Source: a virus (lineage: Duplodnaviria; Heunggongvirae; Uroviricota; Caudoviricetes). Taken from it: 20,548 nt of DNA. Below are positions 1 through 20,548 of this stretch, one piece after another. Where the stretch lies: the IMG/VR virus record IMGVR_UViG_2872698443_000003; one strand, written 5' to 3'. The first letter of the stretch is position 1; each line of letters opens with the position of its first letter. Below the pieces are notes generated by a model. It saw only the letters and a program-made list of their open reading frames with translations. It did no database searches and was not told the DNA's origin. A program made the position numbers and the translations under genes.

Positions 1-366
1 ATGATTGATGTCTTAGGACCGGAGAAACGCAGACGGCGTACTACACAGGAAAAGATCGCTATTGTTCAGCAGAGTTTTGAACCGGGAATGACGGTCTCCC
101 TTGTTGCCCGGCAACACGGTGTGGCAGCCAGCCAGTTATTTCTCTGGCGCAAGCAATACCAGGAGGGAAGTCTTACTGCTGTGGCCGCAGGAGAGCAGGT
201 CGTTCCTGCCTCTGAACTTGCTGCTGCCATGAAGCAGATTAAAGAACTCCAGCGCCTGCTCGGCAAAAAAACGATGGAAAATGAACTCCTTAAAGAAGCC
301 GTTGAATACGGGCGTGCAAAAAAGTGGATAGCGCACGCGCCCTTATTGCCCGGGGATGGGGAGTAA
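1..366 (+). CDS. insC: IS2 transposase OrfA (InsC), 121 aa
   Basis: Track ORF 1..366; protein [30 protein letters not shown]... recognised as IS2 InsC. Confidence 0.92.
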
Positions 367-1229
367 GCTTAGTCAGCCGTTGTCTCCGGGTGTCGCGTGC
401 GCAGTTGCACGTAATTCTCAGACGAACCGATGACTGGAAAGATGGTCGCCGCAGCCGTCACTCAGATGATACGGATGTGCTTCTCCGTATACACCATGTT
501 ATCGGAGAGCTGCCCACGTATGGTTATCGTCGGGTATGGGCGCTGCTTCGCAGACAGGCCGAACTTGATGGTATGCCTGCGATCAATGCCAAACGTGTTT
601 ACCGGATCATGCGCCAGAATGCGCTGTTGCTTGAGCGAAAAACCGCTGTACCGCCATCGAAACGGGCACATACTGGCAAAGTGGCCGTGAAAGAAAGCAA
701 TCAACGATGGTGCTCTGACGGGTTCGAGTTCCGCTGTGATAACGGAGAAAAACTGCGAGTCACGTTCGCGCTGGACTGCTGTGACCGTGAGGCACTGCAC
801 TGGGCAGTCACTACGGGCGGCTTCGACAGTGAAACAGTACAGGACGTCATGCTGGGAGCGGTGGAACGCCGCTTCGGCAACGAGCTTCCGGCGTCTCCAG
901 TAGAGTGGCTGACGGATAATGGTTCATGCTACCGGGCTAATGAAACACGGCAGTTTGCCCGGATATTGGGGCTTGAACCGAAGAACACGGCGGTGCGGAG
1001 TCCGGAGAGTAACGGCATAGCAGAGAGCTTCGTGAAAACGATAAAGCGTGACTACATCAGTATCATGCCTAAACCAGACGGGTTAACGGCAGCAAAGAAC
1101 CTTGCAGAGGCGTTCGAGCATTATAACGAATGGCATCCGCATAGTGCACTGGGTTATCGCTCGCCACGGGAATATCTGCGGCAGCAGGCCAGTAATGGGT
1201 TAAGTGATAACAGGTGTCTGGAAATATAG
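324..1229 (+). CDS. insD: IS2 transposase OrfB (InsD), 301 aa, -1 frame relative to insC; OrfAB fusion expected by programmed frameshift
   Basis: Track ORF 324..1229 with DDE-type integrase core; overlaps insC at AAAAAAG 318-324. Confidence 0.92.
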
Positions 1230-1240
1230 GGGCAAATCCA

Positions 1241-1744
1241 CTGCAACGTGCCGGAATCGATTTGGCGATCTACTTTGATGATGCGCCGTCAGCGCAACTC
1301 ACTCATCACTTTCTGATGGATGAAGAAATCCTGCCAGTATGTAGCCCGGAATACGCTCAAAGACATGCTTTAACCAACACGGTAATTAACCTGTGTCACT
1401 GTACGTTGCTCCATGACAGACAGGCATGGAGCAACGACTCCGGTACGGATGAATGGCATAGTTGGGCGCAACATTATGCGGTTAATTTGCCGACATCTTC
1501 TGGAATTGGCTTTGATCGTTCTGATTTAGCTGTTATTGCCGCGATGAATCATATTGGGGTGGCGATGGGAAGAAAACGCCTGGTACAAAAAAGGCTTGCC
1601 AGTGGTGAGCTCGTCGCGCCGTTTGGCGATATGACGGTGAAATGCCATCAGCATTATTACATCACCACATTACCGGGCAGGCAGTGGCCAAAAATTGAAG
1701 CGTTTATTACCTGGCTAAGAGAACAGGTAAAAACCACTTCATAA
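1241..1744 (+). pseudogene. LysR-family transcriptional regulator, C-terminal substrate-binding portion only (about 168 codons); 5' half replaced by IS2
   Basis: Track ORF 1214..1744 begins inside the IS2 right end, so its first codons are IS-derived; no HTH N-terminus. Position next to the torI/attR end matches the K-12 dsdC neighbourhood (synteny inference, not sequence recognition). Confidence 0.6.
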
Positions 1745-4824: not shown

Positions 4825-5340
4825 TTAAATTGCGTGAATAGCGTGACGAGGGAAGGGGAGGGTTACTGGCGCAAAAGGTATATCGTCGTCAAACTCCATA
4901 GGTGGTTCGCTGTGATTTACCTGCTTCTGAGGCTGCTGTTTTTGTTGCTGACCGTTATTTCGCTGAGGTGAAGACTGTTCATTGCTTCCTTGCTTGCCAC
5001 CAAGCATTTGCATGGTTCCACCAACGCCCACGATAACTTCGGTAGTGAACCGATCCTGTCCGCTTTGATCCTGCCATTTTCTTGTCCGCAATTTTCCTTC
5101 AAGATAAACCTCAGAGCCTTTTCGCAGATATTCGCTGGCAATTTCTGCCAGTTTCCCGCTCATTACCACACGGTGCCACTCCGTCTGCTCCTTTTGCTCT
5201 CCAGTTTGCTTATCACGCCATTGTTCTGACGTAGCAACTATAAGGTTTGCAAATGCCGTTCCTGATGGTGAATATCTGATTTCTGGATCATGCCCAAGGC
5301 GACCAATAATGATCACCTTATTTACGCCTCTACTTCCCAT
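4825..5340 (-). CDS. ssb: Phage single-stranded DNA-binding protein with a 15-residue extension after the canonical DDDIPF tail, 171 aa
   Basis: N-terminal OB-fold region closely matches E. coli SSB as recalled ([51 protein letters not shown]...[10 protein letters not shown]); C-terminus reads ...[24 protein letters not shown]. Confidence 0.88.
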
Positions 5341-6574: not shown

Positions 6575-6640
6575 GGGTAACTCCTTATATTTGATTGCAT
6601 AACGAAAACGCCTCAAGTGAAGCGTTATTGGTATGCATAT

Positions 6641-6664
6641 AAAAAAGCCCCCACACTGGAGGGC
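6641..6664 (-). terminator. Rho-independent terminator on the minus strand
   Basis: Minus-strand RNA GCCCUCCAGUGUGGGGGC followed by UUUUUU. Confidence 0.55.
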
Positions 6665-6759
6665 AAAGAAGATTTCCAATAATCAGAACAAGTCGGCTCC
6701 TGTTTAGTTACGAGCGACATTGCTCCGTGTATTCACTCGTTGGAATGAATACACAGTGC

Positions 6760-6963
6760 TTATTCGCGAGCTTTGAGCATTGCGTCTGCAAACTTATATG
6801 CAGCGCTTGCTGCATAATTAACAGCTCCATCAGAATCATTATCGATAATCGATGGATTGCTAATCATTGCTTGCATAGCCTTTGCCGCGAAGTAATCACG
6901 TAATGTCGCATCACTTGCCATTTCTGGGCGTTTGATATCTGCTTCGTAAAACTCGCACATCAC
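6760..6963 (-). CDS. Hypothetical early protein, 67 aa
   Basis: Track ORF; start overlaps the upstream stop (ATGA at 6960-6963). Confidence 0.5.
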   Translation of the reverse strand: MMCEFYEADIKRPEMASDATLRDYFAAKAMQAMISNPSIIDNDSDGAVNYAASAAYKFADAMLKARE

Positions 6964-7256
6964 TCACCTCCCAGAGCCTTGATGATTGCTGCAAAACCTT
7001 TATTAACAGCTCCATACCATTCTGGATATGTTGTCGTTGTTCTATTTTTGGATTGCTTAAGTAATAACTGAAGTGCTTCGAGAAGGTCAGGTGCTGCCGC
7101 TATTAGATTGGCATCTTCAATGCATTGAACTTCCTCACAGATTGCAATATACGAACGCCAGCCTGCGCCATTTTCAAGAGAGTCTGCCTGGATGATTTTA
7201 ATCTCATCGCCATCCATCATTATTTCCCACTTACCTTCAGTACCTTTAAATTCCAT
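6960..7256 (-). CDS. Hypothetical early protein, 98 aa
   Basis: Track ORF in the leftward operon. Confidence 0.5.
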   Translation of the reverse strand: MEFKGTEGKWEIMMDGDEIKIIQADSLENGAGWRSYIAICEEVQCIEDANLIAAAPDLLEALQLLLKQSKNRTTTTYPEWYGAVNKGFAAIIKALGGE

Positions 7257-7276
7257 GTTAGCCTCTGTTGTTTATG

Positions 7277-7307
7277 CCAAAAATAAAGGCCACCATCAGG
7301 CAGCCTT
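7277..7307 (-). terminator. Rho-independent terminator, related in sequence to the one at 2172-2194
   Basis: Minus-strand stem of about 9 bp (two G-U pairs), loop UGAU, then UUUAUUUUUGG; stop of the 7296..7496 ORF lies in the loop. Confidence 0.5.
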
Positions 7308-7496
7308 GTTGTTCAGTTTACCAAGTTCTCTGGCAATCATTGCCGTCGTTCGTATTGCCCATTTATCGACATATTTCCCATCTTCCATTACAGGAAACAT
7401 TTCTTCAGGCTTAACCATGCATTCCGATTGCAACTTGCATCCATTGCATCGTTTGAATTGTCCACACCATTGATTCTTATCAATAGTCGTAGTCAT
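7296..7496 (-). CDS. Cys-rich small protein, 66 aa, possible zinc-binding
   Basis: Track ORF; C-x4-C-x2-C-x5-C spacing in the N-terminal half. Confidence 0.5.
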   Translation of the reverse strand: MTTTIDKNQWCGQFKRCNGCKLQSECMVKPEEMFPVMEDGKYVDKWAIRTTAMIARELGKLNNKAA

Positions 7497-7574
7497 ACGG
7501 ATAGTCCTGGTATTGTTCCATCACATCCTGCGGATGCTCTTCGAACTCTTCAAATTCTTTTTCCATATCTCACC

Positions 7575-7901
7575 TCAAATAAGTGGTTTGCTGCCTAATT
7601 TCATTTTCTGGCGACCAACACAAGTCACACCCATTTCACTGCGTGGCTTGCTGTACCATGTGCGCTGATTCTTGCGCTCAATACGTTGCAGGTTGCTTTC
7701 AATCTGTTCGTGGTATTCAGCCAGCACCGTAAGGTCTATCGGATTCAGTGCGCTTTCTACTCGTGATTTCGGTTTGCGATTCAGCGAGAGAATAGGGCGG
7801 TTAACTGGTTTTGCGCTTACCCCAACCAACAGGGGATTTGCTGCTTTCCATTGAGCCTGTTTCTCTGCGCGACGTTCGCGGCGGCGTGTTTGTGCATCCA
7901 T
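7575..7901 (-). CDS. N: Antitermination protein N (lambda-like), 108 aa from the internal ATG
   Basis: MDAQTRRRERRAEKQAQWKAANPLLVGVSAKPVNRPILSLNRKPKSRVESALNPIDLTVLAEYH... matches lambda N as recalled; the track ORF's 30 extra N-terminal codons are not part of N. Confidence 0.9.
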   Translation of the reverse strand: MDAQTRRRERRAEKQAQWKAANPLLVGVSAKPVNRPILSLNRKPKSRVESALNPIDLTVLAEYHEQIESNLQRIERKNQRTWYSKPRSEMGVTCVGRQKMKLGSKPLI

Positions 7902-17765: not shown

Positions 17766-19109
17766 TCATCTAACTTCTACTTTATATCGAACTCCGCGTC
17801 CAAGTAAGATAGAAATGAAAGATGACAAAATCATCAAGGCAATTAAGAACACGATGCTATCAAACATGTATGCCAAGCCTATAGGGGGAGACAGCATTAT
17901 TGCCAATGCCCTGCAATAGAAAGATGCTATGAAAGAAGAGTAGAATATATCGCTTCTTAATCTAATGTTTTTTGCTTTACATACACGACCAAGTATCCAG
18001 CCAAAAAATGCAGTCATGAATAAACCGCCGACAAAGCCAAAGTAAACATAACCAGCAAGATCAAAGTGACTTGTTGGCCCCCTTGCTACATCATCCCCAA
18101 GATACCATACCTTCCAAATCATTCTGCCAACATCATTGGCTGAGTAGTCATATCCAAGCATGTTTTGCATTATCCCATTCCCGGCTATATATCCGAATAG
18201 TTGTAGAAATGCATTTTTTACTTGCAACATGTCAATAACTGCATTTGGGAGTGAGAAGTAGTATGCGTCTCCATTTGCAAATATCCGCATGAATAACATT
18301 TCAACAACAACAGGGGCGTCCATGTAGTTTGATTTTGTATACCCTATTGCTGCTGAATTATATGATATTAGGAATAGCACATAAGCAACAAGAGATACGG
18401 ATATAATTAAAAAAACAACCGCACTTTTTATCGTTAGCCTTGGTTTACGACCTGTAAAAATATAAATTGCAATTATAGCAACTAGCAAATGCTCTAGGAG
18501 AGAAAGTTTTGCGCCTGAAACAAAAGACGCAATTATAGATATAATTATAGCTATAAGTGCTATTGATGCTCTTTTCAACCCTCTGGACTTTACTGCCATG
18601 ACAGAAAGATATCCAGTGAGCATCAGTCTTACAACATCAAGTATCCTTACGATAGCACCAAGACCTCTGTTTGCCTCAAACCTAGACTGTACAAAGGCAT
18701 CAAAAGATATACTTTTTATATATATTACCGTTAGTGATATATAAAATATTAGCAACAAATAGAATATTATTGATGAGTTTTTTTTGCATGTATTAAATAC
18801 CTTGTCAGTTGTTCCAAGTAGTCTAAATTTAGGTGTTCTATATGCCAAGTGCATAAACGAAGCCAATACAATCCAGTTTAGAATAATCATGTAGAACAAG
18901 TGATCAGGAATGTAGTTGTAATTCCATAGCATTAATACTATTGCGTAAGAAGTTCCAAATGTGAAGGTAAAATAGAAGTGTATTGGATCTATCACTCCTA
19001 CTGCCAGCTTCCTTACCGTCATGTAACATAAAACAGTTGTTACTGTAGCGTACAGTAAATACTCTGACCAATTTGAAAATATAAAATAAAAAAAGTCTAT
19101 ATCACTCAT
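17766..19109 (-). CDS. Polytopic inner-membrane protein, 447 aa, about 30% GC, Wzy/O-antigen-polymerase-like or GtrS-like; candidate lysogenic-conversion gene
   Basis: Hydrophobic segments throughout the track ORF; very low GC versus about 50% in the rest of the prophage; sits in the int-proximal slot where P22/KplE1-type phages carry O-antigen modification genes. Confidence 0.55.
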   Translation of the reverse strand: MSDIDFFYFIFSNWSEYLLYATVTTVLCYMTVRKLAVGVIDPIHFYFTFTFGTSYAIVLMLWNYNYIPDHLFYMIILNWIVLASFMHLAYRTPKFRLLGTTDKVFNTCKKNSSIIFYLLLIFYISLTVIYIKSISFDAFVQSRFEANRGLGAIVRILDVVRLMLTGYLSVMAVKSRGLKRASIALIAIIISIIASFVSGAKLSLLEHLLVAIIAIYIFTGRKPRLTIKSAVVFLIISVSLVAYVLFLISYNSAAIGYTKSNYMDAPVVVEMLFMRIFANGDAYYFSLPNAVIDMLQVKNAFLQLFGYIAGNGIMQNMLGYDYSANDVGRMIWKVWYLGDDVARGPTSHFDLAGYVYFGFVGGLFMTAFFGWILGRVCKAKNIRLRSDIFYSSFIASFYCRALAIMLSPPIGLAYMFDSIVFLIALMILSSFISILLGRGVRYKVEVR

Positions 19110-19390: not shown

Positions 19391-20548
19391 TCACTCAGGC
19401 TTTTCATCAAGCCAGTCCGCCCACCACTGCATCATTTCTCTGCGCTTATCGAGATACTGCGCATGGTTGTAAATACCGCGCACAGATCCGCCGTTGGCAT
19501 GTGCCAGTTGCATTTCAATAGCATCAGCAGGCCATTCGTTCTCGTTCATAATCGTGCTGAATTCATGCCTGAATCCGTGACCGCTTTCCAGACCCTCATA
19601 GCCGATTTGTTTGATCACAAGCAATACCGCGTTCTCGCAGATTGGCTTCTTCTTATCGTTGCGCCCGGCAAAAACAAACTCTGAGACTGGTTTGGTGATT
19701 GAGCTTAGCGTAGTGAGAAGTTCAACCACCTGGTCTGACATCGGGACCACATGAATTTTGCGTCCCTTCATCACACTGGCGTCGATGGTGATAATCCTGT
19801 TTTCAAAATCGACGTTCTTCCATAGCATGGAACGAAGTTCTTTTGTTCTGAGGGCTGTGTAGCGTAAAACTTTGGTTGCAATGAGCGATACGATACTTCC
19901 TGAAAATGTTGCCAGTGCTTTGTTGAATGCCGGGATCTGGTCTGCAGGAAGAAACGGGAAGTTCTTCTTGCGGTATCCCTTCATGGCGTCAGCAAGGTCA
20001 GGTGCCGGGTTATATTTAGCCCTGCCGGTGACAATAGCGTAACGGAAAACCTCGCCGCATCTTCTGCGGGCTTTATTTGCTCGCTCCATTGCACCGCGAT
20101 CTTCAAATCTGCGGATTACTTCCAGCAGTTGCATCGGCTCAATATCCTGAATTTCAAGGCCGCCGATGATAGGTAAAATGTCGTCATCAAACATTTTTGC
20201 AAGTTCATTTGCATAGCCTACTGACCAGACTTGCTTCTTGTGCTCGTACCATTCCTTGTAAATCGCACTAAATGAATTGTTGTTAGACGAAGCCTTTTTC
20301 GCCTTTACCGGATCGATGCCAACCGAGATGTCTTTCCTCGCAGTCCATGCCTTATCCCTTGCTTCCTGCAAAGTCATAAGCGGATATTTTCCGACGGTCA
20401 GGATTTTCTCCTTACCGTCAATCTTGTAGCGAAGCTGCCATACCTTTTTCCCGGATACAGGAACATAAAGGTACAGGCCATTACCATCGAGAAGGCGGTA
20501 TGGTTTTTCTTTCGGCTTTGCTGCTTCAATCTGCTTAACGGTGAGCAT
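19391..20548 (-). CDS. intS: P4-family tyrosine integrase (IntS-type, argW-specific), 385 aa; start codon is the last three bases of the window
   Basis: MLTVKQIEAAKPKEKPYRLLDGNGLYLYVPVSGKKVWQLRYKIDGKEKILTVGKYPLMTLQEARDKAW... matches K-12 IntS as recalled; catalytic R..HxxR..Y region present. Confidence 0.9.
   Translation of the reverse strand: MLTVKQIEAAKPKEKPYRLLDGNGLYLYVPVSGKKVWQLRYKIDGKEKILTVGKYPLMTLQEARDKAWTARKDISVGIDPVKAKKASSNNNSFSAIYKEWYEHKKQVWSVGYANELAKMFDDDILPIIGGLEIQDIEPMQLLEVIRRFEDRGAMERANKARRRCGEVFRYAIVTGRAKYNPAPDLADAMKGYRKKNFPFLPADQIPAFNKALATFSGSIVSLIATKVLRYTALRTKELRSMLWKNVDFENRIITIDASVMKGRKIHVVPMSDQVVELLTTLSSITKPVSEFVFAGRNDKKKPICENAVLLVIKQIGYEGLESGHGFRHEFSTIMNENEWPADAIEMQLAHANGGSVRGIYNHAQYLDKRREMMQWWADWLDEKPE

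Follow-up and report, generated by a model that had tools for sequence, protein, structure and literature searches.

On the minus strand of the viral sequence analysed here (a stretch of 20,548 nt, referred to below as the window), the two small open reading frames (ORFs) that follow the antiterminator gene N were identified, with near certainty, as orf28 (28 aa) and ral (66 aa). Together they are the orf28-ral module of the lambdoid early-left (pL) operon, a locus which is already known, and the Ral copy is a textbook anti-restriction gene from which itself nothing new was learned. The smaller ORF is a gene without an assigned role in the best-studied phage, skipped by most annotation pipelines and at least as conserved as Ral. 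From the comparison of its homologues we conclude that orf28 is a genuine coding gene, its amino-acid sequence showing the marks of purifying selection, and that it is very probably translated and selected as a peptide. As an overall account we lean, on balance, toward the known ral gene being accompanied by a disordered acidic orf28 peptide, which would act in trans and be co-translated with Ral.

Organization of the orf28-ral module

The genes of the operon follow one another on the minus strand in the order N, orf28, ral, and then cIII and kil, and related loci have the same order. N lies at 7575..7901 (minus strand; Pfam PF11438 N36, E 1.5e-26), its TGA stop codon was read from the sequence at 7577..7575 (minus strand), and it shares 94% DNA identity with lambda N up to window position 7600. 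Directly behind it, the Shine-Dalgarno (SD) sequence of orf28, GAGGTGAG, was read at 7576..7569 (minus strand), where the first-pass annotation had already seen it; its GAGG core lies 6 nt 5' of the orf28 ATG, and the final two nucleotides of the N stop TGA form part of it. By PHROG and the lambda annotation, orf28 (lambdap47, PHROG 16060; 7566..7480, minus strand) encodes an acidic peptide of 28 aa, MEKEFEEFEEHPQDVMEQYQDYPYDYDY. The ral gene (7496..7296, minus strand; ATG start, 66 aa; Pfam PF11058, PHROG 1055) has an AGGA Shine-Dalgarno at 7508..7505 (minus strand), within orf28 codons Q20-D21 and 8 nt 5' of the ral ATG. The coordinates originally given for the two ORFs were exact. The acidic ORF had been placed between N and the 66-aa gene; it does lie 3' of N, but its last 17 nt (7496..7480) overlap the ral start in a different frame.

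A putative terminator-like hairpin with a T tract was found by a consensus scan at 7276..7307 (minus strand). Its stem of 9 bp (7307..7286) overlaps the ral stop codon and is followed by the T tract, and the hairpin is weaker in lambda. When lambda was compared with the window by blastn, the region appeared as one 328-nt block of 96% identity (7264..7591, minus strand), with homology lost at both ends. This mobile module common to lambda holds an N 3'-end relic, the Shine-Dalgarno, orf28, ral and the hairpin.

In lambda and P22, an oppositely oriented sieB lies between N and orf28, whereas in this window, HK544 and Sf101 the orf28-ral region directly follows N. Both lambda and P22 retain an N-type 3'-end relic just 5' of orf28. 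The arrangement suggests that sieB was inserted into an ancestral N-orf28 junction. On the other side of the module, beyond the ral hairpin, the window differs from lambda by an insert of 504 bp that contains two ORFs, of 98 and 67 aa, and lies between the hairpin and a 96.8% match to the lambda PreS/LPR1 sRNA region (window 6759..6636). The lambda region so matched was reported as encoding the PreS/LPR1 sRNA (PMC12197685). Rfam returned no family over the whole window.

Among 5426 complete E. coli genomes, 1244 (23%) carry the module. PGAP names Ral in those genomes, and the rows that we inspected held no feature clearly matching orf28. Most phage and bacterial genome annotations omit orf28.

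Ral and its cysteine motif

The window Ral matches PF11058 (Antirestriction protein Ral) with 162.1 bits over positions 1-66 of 66, the curated cut-off of the family being 25 bits, and it also matches PHROG 1055. It is 98.5% identical to lambda Ral, which has the same 66 aa, the same place 3' of N in the pL operon and the same overlap with orf28, and it differs from it by one substitution near the C-terminus, Q62L. Previous studies established that Ral turns the maintenance methyltransferase of the type IA enzyme EcoKI into a de novo enzyme which protects unmodified phage DNA, and that it acts through the HsdM N-terminal domain (PMC3874165, PMC12707154). Restriction alleviation was reported for both lambda Ral and HK544 Ral (PMC3874165, PMC12707154, 10.1101/2023.04.06.535777), and in a CRISPRi study of lambda ral was conditionally essential on hosts with hsdRMS (PMC10695390). 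We infer from its 98% identity to lambda Ral that the window protein alleviates restriction and enhances type IA modification. The first-pass annotation had suggested a host-factor mimic or inhibitor; the protein is indeed known to act on a host factor, EcoKI, but Ral is an allosteric activator of modification, neither a mimic nor a simple inhibitor.

The Ral family is small, with 81 clusters among 5.8 billion proteins and, in a profile search, 39 representatives among 1.84 billion proteins. Enterobacterales were the source of every named Ral match and of every diverged ral locus. The matches in other taxa are near-identical lambda DNA, and many of the non-enterobacterial assemblies with such matches represent lambda contamination at about 1x coverage. 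In a scan of a genome collection for Ral, contaminating lambda DNA in unrelated assemblies made up almost all of the matches.

The four cysteines pointed out in the first-pass annotation are present as C11, C17, C20 and C26 (C-x5-C-x2-C-x5-C). The motif was intact in 124 of 125 loci, the sole exception being Sf101 (C26Y), and it was kept in the most distant relatives (P0114-P0118), with the last spacer changed to x6 in P0123. Such near-invariant cysteines in a cytoplasmic protein of 66 aa make a metal site plausible, and, on conservation only, the four residues most likely hold a structural metal ion, zinc or iron-sulfur. The C-x2-C-x5-C part of the motif has the spacing of WhiB-like iron-sulfur proteins. 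We found no metal data on Ral in the literature searched; the invariant motif suggests a metal centre in a well-known anti-restriction protein.

The spacing had been described at first as zinc-ribbon-like, a description that the analysis did not support. A zinc-ribbon Ral would agree with four cysteines within 16 residues that are kept in 124 of the 125 loci and in the most distant relatives, but a zinc ribbon consists of two CxxC or CxxH knuckles on beta-hairpins joined by a linker, and Ral has one CxxC only, in a spacing that does not form two such knuckles. In the AlphaFold2 model (mean pLDDT 67), only a beta-hairpin (36-43) and a helix (45-65) are folded, while residues 11-26 form a low-confidence coil or short helix, with no hairpin knuckles. 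Moreover, PF11058 was the only Pfam match and no zinc-ribbon family was hit, Foldseek of the model against the PDB gave nothing below E = 3, and an HMM search of PDB sequences found no Ral relative. We therefore regard a zinc ribbon as very improbable.

Coding selection on orf28

The orf28 peptide matches PHROG 16060, a family of unknown function, over positions 1-28 of 28 (E 1.6e-18). The lambda record NC_001416 annotates the same gene (lambdap47, NP_040623.1; lambda 34357..34271) with an identical 17-nt overlap with ral; the lambda peptide is the same as that of the window except for E3K, and the two share the Shine-Dalgarno, the frame relation and the ral overlap.

Such a short ORF could be a chance frame, its DNA being kept for ral or for signals on the opposite strand. 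This would be in keeping with its omission from most genome annotations, with the overlap of its last third with the Shine-Dalgarno and start of ral, and with the 187 ORFs of 20-40 aa in the window, by which a 28-codon ORF alone is not beyond chance. Among these 187 ORFs, orf28 is the most acidic, with 39% D+E vs 19% for the next (11 D/E among 28 residues, net charge -10).

We gathered ral loci from phage records, IMG/VR and assemblies. In all lineages examined except two, a homologue of orf28 with a start codon and an SD-like run stood before ral and overlapped it. Among these lineages are phages of Escherichia, Shigella and Salmonella, loci that bear the labels Cronobacter, Kluyvera, Providencia, Proteus, a Pantoea-related lineage and Erwinia, and uncultured viral contigs of greater divergence. 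An SD-like purine run stood 5' of the orf28 start in each of the 13 diverged loci inspected, and the overlap with ral, 17 nt in the window, was 8-17 nt in the other lineages. Length differences of orf28 were whole-codon indels, and residues E7, F8, H11, P12, D14, M16, Y19, Q20 and D21 were invariant. The peptide is often better conserved than Ral (86% vs 54% in L128, 81% vs 49% in L129).

Substitution patterns were computed on a 13-codon ungapped core (FEEHPQDVMEQYQ) that is clear of other known elements, using 19 distinct DNA sequences. The variable columns at codon positions 1, 2 and 3 numbered 5, 4 and 11, and pS was 0.88 and pN 0.14. The resulting pN/pS was 0.16 for the orf28 frame, whereas the two remaining sense frames gave 3.5 and 1.9; Ral had a pN/pS of 0.21 over the same loci. 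Two of the antisense frames over the core had ratios >1. The third had a ratio of 0.25 and contained 15 stop codons, and its low value is expected because its wobble positions coincide with those of orf28. The orf28 frame is the only one both low in pN/pS and open throughout all sequences. An antisense ORF at 7428..7598 (plus strand) was considered as the source of the conservation and rejected, the wobble sites of orf28 being its second codon positions.

With regard to RNA signals, CAGGA(C/T), which holds the ral Shine-Dalgarno, was invariant in a 12-locus alignment, and RNAalifold found no conserved structure at the orf28-ral junction (-3.75 kcal/mol). Since fusions of 89 aa exist, programmed frameshifting from orf28 into ral was considered; the idea was dropped because the fusion allele has lost 1 nt in CAGGAC and a slippery site is absent.

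The clustering of changes at third codon positions and the ratio of 0.16 away from other known elements, the in-frame indels in the only low-ratio frame open in all sequences, and the conserved start codon and Shine-Dalgarno at a junction with no conserved RNA structure all stand against a chance frame, which is extremely improbable and may be considered essentially excluded. The initial view that the acidic ORF was worth treating as a gene thus gained comparative support.

Candidate roles of orf28 and likeness to known systems

In the literature searched we found no paper assigning a function to orf28, and its knock-down by CRISPRi in lambda produced no plaque phenotype, the gene being non-essential for plaques (PMC10695390). 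In phage records, the orf28 DNA (its non-overlapping 79 nt) was found in 117 and Ral (tblastn) in 120. Such near one-to-one co-occurrence, together with the overlap of the genes and the opposite charges of their products (-10 for the peptide and mildly basic for Ral, counted from the sequence), would fit a peptide that is a partner of Ral, namely a chaperone, a stoichiometric subunit or a timing antagonist, with the coupling fixing the ratio of the two. We consider such a partnership improbable. When HK544 Ral (AFH20603.1, 66 aa) was the sole gene expressed, from an inducible promoter, it was active against EcoKI in MG1655 (10.1101/2023.04.06.535777), and therefore Ral blocks EcoKI alone and does not need orf28. 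Furthermore, two lineages have Ral without orf28. In Citrobacter-type loci (L117, L118 and L122), an unrelated 66-aa ORF replaces orf28 behind the same SD junction (CCACTTATTTAGAGGTGAG) and ends in ATGA on the ral start, and in L125, which has a distant Ral, a DUF905 protein overlaps the ral start likewise by ATGA. Since the ral start is overlapped even where orf28 is absent, Ral seems to be habitually coupled in translation to an upstream ORF, with orf28 as an exchangeable cassette. In addition, one and the same orf28 sequence accompanies Ral of the lambda type and Ral of the P22 type, which are mutually only about 75% identical; this lack of co-variation argues against tight co-evolution of both products. 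AlphaFold2 on a natural orf28-Ral fusion (P0011) predicted the peptide without secondary structure (pLDDT 50-58), as would suit a disordered acidic and aromatic motif, and showed no docking of it on Ral, which is a weak test.

We tentatively favour a trans-acting main role of orf28, to which we give slightly less than an even chance. By published work, Ral makes the methyltransferase of type IA enzymes such as EcoKI quickly modify unmethylated phage DNA, so that the incoming genome escapes cleavage. In the window, orf28 is translationally coupled on both sides, with the N stop in its Shine-Dalgarno and the ral start 17 nt inside its 3' end, so that a single pass of the ribosome would yield N, orf28 and Ral. 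In the mechanism that we propose, the peptide would be a short linear motif that is disordered, strongly acidic and aromatic, and it may bind a conserved host protein, or another phage protein, at a surface that is basic or binds nucleic acids. Seen in this way, orf28 would be a separate accessory or counter-defence function travelling with ral, not a subunit needed by Ral, and the delivery of ribosomes to the ral start would be its secondary cis effect. The position of the N stop in the orf28 Shine-Dalgarno, of the ral start in orf28 and of the first terminator-like hairpin only after ral suggests that the immediate-early transcript could yield N, orf28 and Ral in this window; in lambda, there is presumably a terminator between N and ral. 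Our preference for a peptide that acts in trans comes from the early-left operon being rich in small inhibitors of host proteins (cIII, Kil, Gam).

A tandem query of three orf28 variants, which reaches only proteins sharing 5-residue words, returned only Enterobacterales read-in ORFs and fusion artefacts and no host protein that carries the motif, and orf28 had no match in Pfam or PADLOC. That the peptide and Ral form a two-part counter-defence module, with the peptide targeting a conserved host nucleic-acid-binding or basic groove, is possible and somewhat doubtful. Candidate targets are speculative: a component of restriction or of another defence system, or an SSB-tail client, given the likeness of M-E-x-Y-x-D-Y-P-Y to the SSB tip. 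Indeed, M-E-Q-Y-Q-D-Y-P-Y of orf28 resembles M-E-F-D-D-D-I-P-F of the window's own SSB. The peptide does not have the full form of the SSB C-terminal tip itself, which is defined by an acidic run, a D-hydrophobic-P-aromatic motif at the extreme C-terminus and a free carboxylate; in orf28, 1-4 residues trail the motif, and some homologues have R or Q in place of P23. In the prophage SSB the canonical tip (MEFDDDIPF) is internal and is followed by 15 extra residues. If orf28 is a trans effector, it would be a very small new phage anti-host peptide, among the smallest phage anti-host effectors, which lambda and roughly one in four E. coli genomes carry, and its action might explain why it travels jointly with ral.

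Against the trans-acting peptide stand the missing plaque phenotype of the knock-down and the failure of the tandem query to find the motif in a host protein; moreover, ral is overlapped by some upstream ORF even without orf28, which fits cis coupling equally, and the acidic N-terminus of orf28 resembles sequences known to perturb translating ribosomes. The main rival is that orf28 is a cis-acting leader, in which the act of translation, and not the product, sets the amount of Ral, either through termination and reinitiation at the overlapped ral start or through occlusion of the ral Shine-Dalgarno and AUG. The acidic MEEEFEEFEE stretch could abort or pause elongation, by intrinsic ribosome destabilisation (IRD) or by EttA-dependent pausing, and Ral output or the access of Rho would then track Mg2+ or the energy state, in the manner of the MgtL leader. 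In every lineage with orf28, its 3' end extends 8-17 nt past the beginning of ral, the ORFs that stand in its place keep an ATGA overlap, and a ribosome ending orf28 sits on the ral Shine-Dalgarno (AGGA, 7508..7505) and AUG. Residues 2-7 include 4-5 D/E among the six (4 of 6 in the window, 5 of 6 in most homologues), so that orf28 shows the enrichment of D/E/P in the six residues after the initiator Met by which IRD-prone N-termini were searched (10.1101/2021.02.02.429294). EttA was reported to rescue ribosomes paused at acidic residues among the first 30 aa and in this way to control mgtL and mgtA (PMC11282234). Nascent-peptide regulators are also conserved at the amino-acid level. However, the best-conserved part of orf28 is its C-terminal half (H-P-x-D-x-M-x-x-Y-Q-D-Y), and the acidic run varies in length; RNAalifold gave no conserved mRNA structure around the junction; a conserved, well-spaced AGGA belongs to ral itself; Ral is functional when a foreign promoter drives it alone; and orf28 resembles a cassette that can be swapped for others at a common SD junction. 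We thus judge a purely cis-acting leader unlikely, if less so than a Ral partner, and regard it as a serious rival; if it is one, orf28 would illustrate in a phage how an acidic nascent chain exerts control.

Compared with known systems, Lar/RalR of the Rac prophage, which we take to be unrelated to Ral in sequence, was absent from the Ral-family matches. It is likewise named for the alleviation of EcoKI restriction, and it is the toxin in a type I toxin-antitoxin pair, with a reported activity as a non-specific DNase (PMC4041452). Leaders of the MgtL type share with orf28 a short ORF that is rich in D/E right after the initiator Met and lies immediately upstream of, and coupled to, a regulated gene. 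As differences from MgtL, RNAalifold detected no switchable RNA structure for orf28, and the residues most conserved in orf28 are not those of the acidic run.

Ocr and ArdA, of >100 aa each, have a fold by which they imitate a length of B-DNA. The orf28 peptide resembles T7 Ocr and ArdA in being very acidic, phage- or plasmid-borne, early, and genetically tied to escape from type I restriction (PMC3874165), and it has the strong negative charge of these DNA mimics. In contrast to them, it has 28 aa, is predicted to be disordered (pLDDT 50-58) and has no predicted secondary structure; the folded scaffold of these mimics, whose carboxylates match B-DNA geometry across a dozen bp or more, is absent from the prediction. 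T4 Stp is a 26-aa peptide which acts on a type IC restriction enzyme and is not acidic. It was listed as a known control gene (10.1101/2023.04.06.535777) and, although it shares no sequence similarity with orf28, Stp provides a precedent for a phage peptide of <30 aa that acts on type I restriction-modification.

Apparent coupling of ral to an upstream gene

In the window, the gene of the 66-aa restriction-alleviation protein Ral (7296..7496, minus strand) starts within the 3' end of orf28, which encodes a 28-aa acidic peptide (7480..7566, minus strand). We found that orf28 was replaced by another ORF in two Ral lineages: an unrelated 66-aa ORF (MAKITFGFC...) occupied its place at 1304..1504 of the ral loci L117, L118 and L122 and had no match in PHROG, and a DUF905 protein occupied it at 339..608 of L125. 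Both substitutes end in ATGA on the ral start. Translation of Ral appears in every case to be coupled to that of an upstream gene. Natural orf28-ral fusion proteins were present in public data (database entries P0001, corresponding to L124 601..870, P0011 and P0006). The P0001 fusion, 89 aa long and in a cluster with 76 member sequences, arose by a 1-nt deletion in CAGGAC, the conserved orf28 stretch containing the Shine-Dalgarno sequence of ral, which was damaged as well; this fusion may represent a true allele or an assembly error that recurs.

Natural variation and apparent host range of Ral

The fourth conserved cysteine of Ral was replaced by tyrosine (C26Y) in phage Sf101 (L003) and in a few database clusters (P0004, P0006, P0018), and this natural variant would offer a ready-made test of the need for the Cys motif. 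Genome contig matches (L004-L019, L021, L022, L024, L025, L027) also contained Ral 95-100% identical to that of lambda in assemblies labelled Pseudoxanthomonas, Nocardioides, Shewanella, Paenibacillus, Bradyrhizobium and others. These contigs were short, with a coverage of about 1 according to their names, and the matches look like lambda DNA contamination and not a wide host range.

Downstream region of ral and other window genes

A terminator-like hairpin (7286..7307, minus strand) overlaps the ral stop codon; the lambda version is weaker, with two stem positions mismatched. With N immediately before orf28-ral, no other intrinsic terminator-like site would lie between pL and this hairpin in the window phage, so that ral expression might not depend on N antitermination. 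Between the hairpin and a block matching the lambda ral-ea10 intergenic region at 96.8% (6636..6759, minus strand) lies a 504-bp insert relative to lambda (6760..7263, minus strand) with two ORFs, one of 98 aa (PHROG 1273, homologous to UDP0110 from a published accessory-gene library) and one of 67 aa (PHROG 2201-like). The ea10 gene itself is missing. The Hfq-dependent sRNA PreS/LPR1 was reported to be encoded in the lambda intergenic region (PMC12197685); no Rfam model matched the insert or the adjoining lambda-like block (6636..7263).

The prophage SSB (4825..5340, minus strand) has the canonical C-terminal tip sequence, but internally, with 15 further residues after it. Partner binding by SSB normally needs a free C-terminal Phe, so this protein is possibly a variant SSB or a product of read-through. 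At the left end, an IS-type rve transposase adjoining a truncated LysR-type gene (324..1744, plus strand) has the appearance of host DNA or of an insertion. At the right end, a 447-aa ORF (17766..19109, minus strand) without Pfam or PADLOC match is followed by a tyrosine integrase (19391..20548, minus strand) running past the window edge.

The N-orf28 junction in lambda and P22

In lambda and P22, sieB separates N from orf28, and the approximately 25 nt before orf28 read GCAATCCACTATTT[A/G]AG[G/A]TGA. When the junctions were compared (L001 2480..2530 and L028 1060..1113 versus window 7599..7567), this stretch still resembled GCAAACCACTTATTTGAGGTGA, the 3'-terminal part of the window-type N gene. 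Such resemblance points to an ancestral N-orf28 junction, which appears to be the site where sieB was inserted.
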